This document shows positions 23,155-26,273 of a stretch of DNA of 64,000 bases, piece by piece. The notes under the pieces are model-generated. The model saw only the letters and a list, made by a program, of their open reading frames with translations. It was not told the origin of the DNA and did not search any database. Numbering within the stretch: position 1 is the stretch's first letter; the number at the start of each line of letters is the position of its first letter. A program made the position numbers and the translations under genes. The DNA comes from Escherichia coli (GTDB lineage: Bacteria > Pseudomonadota > Gammaproteobacteria > Enterobacterales > Enterobacteriaceae): the NCBI RefSeq assembly GCF_003018255.1, contig NZ_CP027440.1. The stretch is one strand, 5' to 3'.

Positions 23155-24292
23155 TCAGGCGTCACGCGGTAACCCTTTTTCAATCACCCGAACCAGACGC
23201 TGTTTTTTGGGTAATTGCACTTCGACCACGCACGCATTTCGCCTCTCGATTTGCTGCGCAATCGCCCACGCTATGTGCTCATCAAGAAGTGGGTGCTCAC
23301 CTTTACGACTTTCCAGCGCTGTCAAAATCGTTTCATCCCAGGGGGCATTGCCTAATGCTACGGCGATATTACGCAGCCAACGCAGGTGACCTATACGGCG
23401 AATCGCCGAACCTTCCGTGACTTTTAAAAACTTCTCTTCACTCCAGGCGAATAACTCAATGAGTTCCGGTGCGTGTAGCGGCTTACGCGGGCTGAAATCG
23501 TCTTCTGTAGTGAGTTGCGAATAGCGATTCCACGGGCAGATAAGCTGGCAGTCATCGCAACCGTAAATACGGTTTCCCATTAACGGTCGCAACTCTTCCG
23601 GGATCGCCCCTTCCAGTTCGATGGTGAGATAAGAGATACAGCGGCGAGCATCGACGGTATATGGCTCGACGATGGCACCGGTCGGGCAAATCGTCATACA
23701 GGCCACGCATTTACCGCATCCTTCCTCGACTGGTTGATCCACGGGCAGCGGAATATCGACCAGCAATTCGCCTAAAAAGAAGAACGAACCGGCCTCGCGA
23801 TTGAGGATAAGTGAGTGCTTACCTGTCCAGCCAAGACCTGCTTTTTCAGCTAACGGGCGCTCGAGAATAGGCGCAGAATCGACAAACGGTCTAAAATTCA
23901 GCGAAACACAATGTTGCTGAATCATCTCGCCCAGCTTTTTGAGTCGGTTGCGCAGAAGCTTGTGATAGTCACGGCCCAGCGCATAACGGCTAACATAGCC
24001 GAGTTTGGGATTTTTCAGCGTGCTGGCAAATGCGGCGTTAGCAGGAAGGTAATTCATCCGAACGCTGATCACGCGCAGCGTACCGGGCAATAATTCGTGA
24101 GGACGAGCACGCAGCATACCGTGACGCGCCATCCAGTCCATTTCGCCGTGGTATTGTTTGTCCAGCCATGCTTGCAGTTTGGGCTCGGACGCGCTGAGAT
24201 CGGTATCGGTAATACCTACCTGCTGAAAGCCCAGTTCCAGCCCCCACTGTTTAATATTTTGCGCTAATTGATTGAGATCGAGGGGCTCTGAC

Positions 24293-24294
<2 letters not shown>
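23155..24294 (-). CDS. queG: Epoxyqueuosine reductase QueG
   Basis: ORF track frame; start at [18 protein letters not shown] (ATG revcomp 24292..24294), 379 aa; ferredoxin-type Cys motifs. Confidence 0.9.

Positions 24295-26273
<1,979 letters not shown>

Follow-up and report, generated by a model that had tools for sequence, protein, structure and literature searches.

Divergent queG and nnr start codons overlap within a conserved CATG in Escherichia coli, with the expression signals of each gene probably placed inside its partner

How can two divergent genes be expressed when nothing lies between them? The question is raised by queG, encoding epoxyqueuosine reductase, and nnr, encoding the bifunctional NAD(P)HX epimerase/dehydratase, whose start codons overlap in a 64,000-nucleotide (nt) stretch of Escherichia coli contig NZ_CP027440.1 (GCF_003018255.1). 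This whole stretch is the window of the present study, and all positions are window coordinates unless stated otherwise. An earlier sequence-only reading had pointed out that the two ATG codons share two bases within the CATG at 24292-24295 and had reasoned that the promoters, having no intergenic space, must lie inside the partner coding sequences (CDSs). Our analysis favors, with a probability of roughly 0.85, a real and conserved head-to-head junction at which two genes meet that are transcribed and translated independently, and in which the signals of each gene lie in the CDS of the other and the promoters face each other. For conservation counts, the orthologous junction was taken from 80 other Enterobacteriaceae species, which together with the window gives 81 sequences. 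The elements of the overlap are as follows.

24292..24295, both strands: CATG tetramer with both start codons, seen in the sequence, in the K-12 and Prokaryotic Genome Annotation Pipeline (PGAP) annotations, and in 80 of the 81 species sequences
23155..24294, minus strand: queG CDS, epoxyqueuosine reductase, 379 amino acids (aa; MSEPLDLNQ...), from open reading frame (ORF) and annotation
24293..25840, plus strand: nnr CDS, bifunctional NAD(P)HX epimerase/dehydratase, 515 aa from the first ATG, from ORF and annotation

The junction reads ...ggctctgaCATGacggacc..., with C24292, A24293, T24294, and G24295 (bases 24280-24310 are gaggggctctgaCATGacggaccatacaATGaag). The queG ATG occupies 24294..24292 on the minus strand and the nnr ATG 24293-24295, and positions 24293-24294 are common to both ORFs, which terminate at 23155 on the minus strand and at 25840 on the plus strand, respectively. 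The sharing of two bases is therefore confirmed by the sequence, the ORFs, and the K-12 and PGAP annotations. In K-12 (NC_000913.3), queG (yjeS, b4166) spans 4392928..4394067 on the minus strand, nnr (yjeF, b4167) spans 4394066..4395613 on the plus strand, and tsaE (b4168) begins at 4395585; after an offset of +4369773, the window is collinear with this locus at the junction with zero indels and has the same 2-nt and 29-nt overlaps. PGAP annotation in the nearest genome agrees with that of K-12 for both genes. The window belongs to a different E. coli lineage, with 96.5% identity to K-12 from queG to tsaE; none of the 15 substitutions within 23800-24400 falls within the CATG, the nnr Shine-Dalgarno (SD) sequence, either -10 element, or the queG leader. 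Of 5426 complete E. coli genomes, 5425 carry the junction region, with identities of 95-99.9%; the overlap is thus not peculiar to a single strain.

Both members of this divergent overlapping pair are real, conserved genes and not spurious ORFs. The window Nnr shares 99% identity with the E. coli Nnr cluster, carries the Pfam domains YjeF_N and Carb_kinase, and has thousands of homologues, while QueG is 379 aa long and free of indels in all 81 species. In order, the locus comprises orn, the three genes for tRNA-Gly, yjeV, queG (minus strand), and then nnr, tsaE, amiB, and mutL (plus strand). The queG/nnr start overlap is already known from the reference annotation and from published transcript, double-stranded RNA (dsRNA), and excludon maps. 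Divergent pairs make up 2 of the 663 overlapping adjacent E. coli gene pairs in a published survey (PMC4161906).

Do the two CDSs truly overlap? The head-to-head overlap is conditional on nnr starting at 24293, a position that we assign from its SD and from conservation. The relevant sites in nnr are these.

24280..24285, plus strand: nnr SD, GAGGGG, 7 nt 5′ of ATG 24293, inside queG codons 4-5 (CCC CTC; Pro4-Leu5)
24308..24310, plus strand: alternative in-frame nnr ATG (MKKNPV...), without an SD and probably not the main E. coli start
24272..24274, plus strand: upstream in-frame TTG of the nnr ORF, without an SD and 5′ of the conserved SD

Both in-frame alternatives that had been listed from the sequence, TTG 24272 and ATG 24308, are indeed present in the ORF. 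The predicted pairing with the 16S rRNA tail amounts to -7.2 kcal/mol for 24293, -3.2 kcal/mol for 24308, and +0.7 kcal/mol for 24272, against a mean of -3.1 kcal/mol for random 22-mers from the window. With no SD of its own and a location upstream of the conserved one, TTG 24272 was ruled out as the nnr start. GAGGGG is kept in 76 of the 81 species. The CATG is present in 80, the exception being S. arizonae, which reads CATTATG, so that the nnr ATG is shifted one codon downstream and the overlap is lost. The first nnr ATG is in frame and open in 77 species. At the position aligned with 24308, the codon is ATG in 35 species, GTG in 16, TTG in 8, CTG in 8, CTA in 8, GAG in 4, and ATA and CTT in 1 each; the 22 species with a non-start codon there have the first ATG as their sole option. 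Because the CATG is conserved, 24308 is lost in 22 species, and an SD is found only at 24293, we judge ATG 24293 to be very probably the main nnr start in E. coli. Initiation at 24308, the case that the sequence-only reading had named as removing the overlap, is unlikely for this species.

Some observations weigh against this assignment. In four Kosakonia-clade sequences (L046, L047, L055, and L058: Kosakonia cowanii, K. arachidis, K. oryziphila, and one soil metagenome-assembled genome), a single inserted nucleotide (CATAGAG/CATAGAA) takes the first ATG out of the reading frame, and nnr must therefore initiate at the second ATG. The first ATG opens an ORF of 20-21 codons that overlaps the nnr start at the second ATG, and the clade retains the CATG, the SD, and the queG leader sequence despite the insertion. 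Judging from these sequences, an Nnr beginning MKKN... can evidently function. Since ATGACGGACCAT is conserved even where the first ATG is out of frame, its conservation reflects the queG leader and not nnr coding alone. Besides, our assignment of the E. coli Nnr N-terminus comes entirely from comparative and SD evidence: a search of the PDB returned no E. coli Nnr structure, hence no construct N-terminus, and the TRAINSPOTTER and Salmonella riboproteogenomics supplements contain no nnr or queG entry.

These points bear on the view that the annotated overlap is an artefact, with E. coli Nnr starting at ATG 24308 and the two CDSs lying 13 nt apart (24295-24307). That ATG is in frame, is picked by some automatic gene callers (510-aa entries, e.g., P0002), and is the only usable ATG in the Kosakonia clade; Nnr residues 2-5 would be dispensable for the fold, as homology to solved structures starts at about residue 52-61; and the conservation of ATGACGGACCAT could be explained by the queG leader alone. 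However, the pairing energy at 24308 equals the random average, GAGGGG would sit 22 nt away from it, and its equivalent is CTG, CTA, GAG, ATA, or CTT in 22 of the 81 species, which leaves the first ATG alone. The first ATG, in frame and open in 77 of 81, is also the one that K-12 and PGAP choose. We therefore regard an annotation artefact as improbable. It is quite improbable, too, that both ATGs are used to yield two Nnr proteoforms (515 and 510 aa), the overlap being real for part of the protein. The in-frame spacing of 15 nt, an ATG, GTG, or TTG at the second position in 59 of the 81 species, the functional short Nnr of the Kosakonia case, and the weak structure around both starts would all suit this arrangement, but no SD precedes the second ATG, and a quarter of the species have lost this codon.

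Directly 5′ of the SD that serves ATG 24293, a GATC (Dam) site at 24276-24279 lies within GAGATCGAGGGG and is kept in most of the 81 species.

Is this arrangement confined to the Enterobacteriaceae? Among relatives with a 45-50% identical Nnr, queG is the divergent neighbor of nnr in four of six representatives, counting one (L088) whose neighboring gene is truncated at the contig end and received no Pfam call. The called queG and nnr starts in these relatives overlap by 2 nt on CATG in one case (50% identical Nnr) or lie 6, 16, or 73 nt apart. In one small endosymbiont-sized genome and on one other contig, queG is not beside nnr. The tight head-to-head arrangement of queG and nnr thus appears to be old, and the exact overlap seems to have either recurred or persisted.

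Where, then, does queG transcription begin? The candidate signals lie within the nnr CDS.

24334..24326, minus strand: putative queG extended -10 element, TGGTATACT; on the plus strand, nnr codons 12-14 AGT ATA CCA (Ser-Ile-Pro)
24295..24319, minus strand: queG 5′ leader of about 24-25 nt, GUUUUUCUUCAUUGUAUGGUCCGUC; complement of nnr codons 1-9

In the operon map of Conway 2014, as far as the supplement of PMC7373196 quotes it, the 5′ end of queG is 4392114 of U00096.2. This corresponds to window position ~24318, 24 nt inside nnr (codon 9). The conversion from U00096.2 to window positions (-4367796) was fixed by a listed small RNA, CAUGACGGACCAUACAAUGAAG, at 4392087-4392109; the offset from U00096.2 to U00096.3 is 1977, in agreement with a check at arcA/yjjY. 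The TGnTATAAT-like motif TGGTATACT lies about 7 nt 5′ of the mapped start 24318 (it ends 7 nt upstream of 24319), as an extended -10 element would. This region reads AGTATACCA in 78 of the 81 species, ACTATACCA in two, and AGTGTACCA in one. Correspondingly, nnr Ser12, Ile13, and Pro14 are each written with one codon only (AGT, ATA, and CCA, respectively) across all species, and the ATA at codon 13 is the sole ATA in the window nnr. We infer the identity of this -10 element, and that of its nnr counterpart below, from sequence. In addition, the primer that an independent laboratory gives for its ΔPqueG construct (PMC10950094) joins ...AAAAACCCCG to CGATATCCGCCGCGGA, deleting 24324-24354, which is the -10 to -35 interval.

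The queG leader is U-rich, has no SD (-2.7 kcal/mol), and folds more weakly than its shuffles (z=+1.7). Minus-strand small RNAs over 24289-24311 have been captured as dsRNA (PMC7373196 supplement). No other in-frame ATG, GTG, or TTG is present between the mapped queG 5′ end and the conserved N-terminus, and translation of queG appears to initiate independently of an SD. The lack of an SD would also fit a leaderless queG mRNA made from a TATGGT motif, which lies 5 nt 5′ of the queG ATG; the surrounding GGTCCGTCATG is nearly invariant, and the N-terminal codons of nnr would then be conserved as promoter rather than as leader. In contrast, the published 5′ end lies 24 nt upstream of the queG ATG (window 24318), minus-strand small RNAs such as UCAUUGUAUGGUCCGUCAUGUC reach 17 nt upstream of the AUG and thereby cover 17 nt of leader, and TATGGT becomes TCAGGT in Buttiauxella while the upstream TGGTATACT stays conserved. 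We rejected the leaderless mRNA as highly improbable and retain a queG transcript with a short leader. Within this leader, an out-of-frame upstream AUG (minus strand, 24304..24302) lies opposite the nnr His4 codon CAT. It opens a 17-codon ORF across the queG start, is kept wherever His4 is kept, and is absent in Buttiauxella.

And where does the nnr operon begin? Its signals would lie within queG.

23892..23897, plus strand: putative nnr-operon -10 element, TAAAAT; complement of queG codons 133-135 (AAT TTT AGA; Asn133-Phe134-Arg135)
23905..24292, plus strand: nnr 5′ untranslated region (UTR) of about 388 nt, wholly antisense to the first third of queG

The same operon map, as excerpted in the PMC7373196 supplement, lists a plus-strand operon from ‘P 4391701’ to ‘T 4408049’ (U00096.2); in window coordinates, the nnr operon therefore starts at ~23905, which is 388 nt into queG. 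Conway et al. rank the yjeF (nnr) operon, with its 14 genes and 8 promoters, above all others of E. coli in complexity; in vitro, this operon is transcribed preferentially by the sigma-70 holoenzyme. The hexamer TAAAAT ends 7 nt upstream of 23904 and is present in 81 of 81 species. On the queG side, Asn133 (AAT) and Phe134 (TTT) each use a single codon, and Arg135 is AGA in 80 of the 81 species; besides AGA 135, the window queG has a single other AGR codon. The synonymous alternatives tested at these three positions (TTC, AAC, and CGN) all break TAAAAT. Therefore, the earlier proposal that the promoters reside inside the partner CDSs, no intergenic space being available, is borne out by the published 5′ ends (23905 and 24318), by conserved -10 elements at both, and by the ΔPqueG deletion.

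Do such signals leave a trace in the genes that carry them? Codon entropy was computed at amino-acid-conserved codons in codon alignments of queG and nnr from the 81 sequences; the lowest six-codon windows were located, and a permutation P value was obtained for the gene-wide minimum against the rest of the gene. The background normalized entropy was 0.72 for nnr and 0.67 for queG. Three minima coincide with the signals described above.

24296-24334, nnr codons 2-14: mean entropy 0.165, P=0.001; queG leader and putative extended -10
24291-24271, queG codons 2-8: mean entropy 0.100, P=0.001; nnr SD, the strongest minimum in queG
23901-23884, queG codons 132-137: mean entropy 0.162, P=0.0025; putative nnr -10 and start site

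These synonymous footprints lend support to promoters within partner CDSs independently of the transcript maps. ATA and AGA, the codons fixed at nnr Ile13 and nearly fixed at queG Arg135, are rare codons in E. coli.

Two other blocks with little synonymous variation were observed. One comprises queG codons 155-162 (23809-23832; AAGTGAGTGCTTACCTGTCCAGCC on the plus strand), where nucleotide conservation across the 81 species is near-total, synonymous sites included (P about 0.002). This block, to which no known signal was assigned, precedes the nnr transcript start by 70-95 nt. The other, nnr codons 358-370 (25364-25402), is the second synonymous-constraint minimum in nnr (P=0.001 for codons 365-370); its plus strand reads CTGGCA-N18-CACAAT and could be an internal operon promoter for tsaE/amiB.

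What follows for the transcripts from two promoters that face each other 413 bp apart? Their mRNAs are necessarily complementary over that stretch.

23905..24318, both strands: region of 413 nt transcribed on both strands; overlap of the queG and nnr transcripts and source of RNase III-cut dsRNA

Conway 2014, as quoted in the PMC7373196 supplement, lists a divergent operon overlap at 4391701-4392114 (413 nt, U00096.2), and the quoted entry of Lybecker et al. gives the dsRNA MS-212 at 4391717-4392100 (U00096.2). The p19-captured dsRNA cluster S-361, consisting of RNase III-type duplexes of ~21 nt, falls in the same interval (PMC7373196 supplement). In ExcludonFinder 2025, queG-nnr is one of 16 divergent excludons, and yjeV-queG-nnr is one of three noncontiguous operons. 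The 5′ transcript overlap that defines a divergent excludon is thus available from the literature, and -10 elements at the expected distances support it. The assignment is made by transcript overlap and not by mutually exclusive expression.

Taken together, we propose that nnr is the first gene of a long nnr-tsaE-amiB-mutL-miaA-hfq... operon and would be translated from 24293 by means of the SD GAGGGG, after transcription starting near 23905 from TAAAAT with a 388-nt leader antisense to queG. The queG mRNA would start near 24318-24319 from TGGTATACT and have an unstructured leader of 24-25 nt without an SD. The signals for expression are embedded in the partner CDSs because no spacer exists between the genes. 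Polymerases from the nnr promoter would have to traverse the queG promoter, and vice versa; the complementary mRNAs pair, and RNase III cuts the duplex. The complementarity of ~413 nt would explain the abundant duplexes of RNase III size. The overlap of the start codons itself gives no translational coupling, as the two codons reside on different mRNAs. The 2-nt overlap probably represents the end-point of compaction, held in place by stacked constraints.

Other points have to be set against this model. Strict two-hexamer sigma-70 promoter and terminator scans of 22900-26400 returned no promoter-like site; the consensus scan fails on both promoters because their -35 hexamers are poor, and it therefore tells little here. 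The 5′ ends come from one RNA-seq operon map quoted second-hand, with a resolution of one or two nt. Any regulatory consequence of the transcript overlap for either gene is presumptive.

An Rfam scan of 23000-24600 on both strands gave no match at E<=1, and, with the folds of both initiation regions weaker than shuffles, a structured-RNA element at the junction was dropped from consideration.

How does the junction compare with known arrangements? With the divergent excludons (concept of Sesto et al. 2013; Conway 2014; ExcludonFinder 2025), queG-nnr shares facing promoters, a 5′ overlap of 413 nt, and dsRNA detected by antibody and by p19. In contrast to other excludons, for which a mean intergenic distance of 95 nt is given in E. 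coli (ExcludonFinder), the queG and nnr CDSs touch each other and the overlap is wholly coding rather than made of intergenic UTRs. The co-directional ATGA/TGATG overlaps are likewise very short start/stop overlaps in a compact genome, and nnr/tsaE is of that general kind; the CATG codons, however, lie on opposite strands, where the ribosome transfer of ATGA/TGATG coupling is impossible, and divergent overlaps are much less common. Symmetric bidirectional promoters (reportedly the subject of Warman et al. 2021) are said to fire both ways from shared or overlapping -10 elements. Both arrangements consist of divergent genes on a compact control region, but the -10 elements of queG and nnr are ~430 bp apart and face each other (convergent), giving overlapping and not diverging transcripts.

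Could the junction be a selected regulatory device, reciprocally tuning queG against the tsaE/miaA/hfq operon, and not mere compaction? We consider this unlikely. If it were true, the constrained blocks at 23809-23832 and 25364-25402 would be further unannotated control elements.

The queG/nnr junction is a clean textbook case and matters little beyond that. The queG promoter has already been deleted deliberately in a study of the neighboring datA locus (PMC10950094). The present study adds support from the comparison of species for general use of the annotated upstream nnr start, and it makes the SD and the two -10 elements legible as synonymous footprints in the partner genes, down to the fixed rare codons ATA and AGA. 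In practice, recoding, codon-optimizing, or deleting the 5′ part of queG or nnr will disturb the partner gene. For example, a change in nnr codons 12-14 would affect the queG promoter, and one in queG codons 133-135 would affect that of the nnr-tsaE-...-hfq operon.

At its other end, nnr overlaps the next gene of its operon.

25812..25840, plus strand: nnr 3′/tsaE 5′ overlap of 29 nt; tsaE start at 25812, annotated in K-12

The ORFs and the K-12 annotation agree with the sequence-only reading on this overlap of about 29 nt. Among relatives, tsaE starts were called automatically, by taking whichever of ATG, GTG, or TTG came first in frame 5′ of the TsaE P-loop, and 80 sequences were scored. An overlap of 29 nt was found in 9 of these 80, and one of 8 nt in 36 species. 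Where the called start was an ATG, most values fell between -7 and +32 nt, and a single aberrant call lay far upstream; for 17 sequences the start chosen was an upstream TTG. The overlap varies because the length of the Nnr C-terminal tail differs among species, and the 29-nt form appears to be lineage-specific. At nnr codons 491-500 (25763-25792), synonymous variation is reduced 20-50 nt 5′ of the tsaE start, presumably marking the tsaE translation-initiation region inside the nnr 3′ end.

On the queG side, the interval that separates the last tRNA-Gly gene (22810-22885) from the queG stop (23155), given as 22886-23172, is the counterpart of the E. coli datA locus. In PMC10950094, datA is described as a DnaA-inactivating sequence with DnaA boxes and an integration host factor (IHF) site, regulated by read-through transcription from glyVXY. 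The 17-codon ORF yjeV lies at 23119-23172 and shares 18 nt with the queG 3′ end. Farther from the junction, the first tRNA-Gly(GCC) gene is separated from the second by a spacer (22542-22698) that is 157 nt long in the window and the closest genome against 36 nt in K-12, which points to an insertion of ~120 nt in the window lineage.

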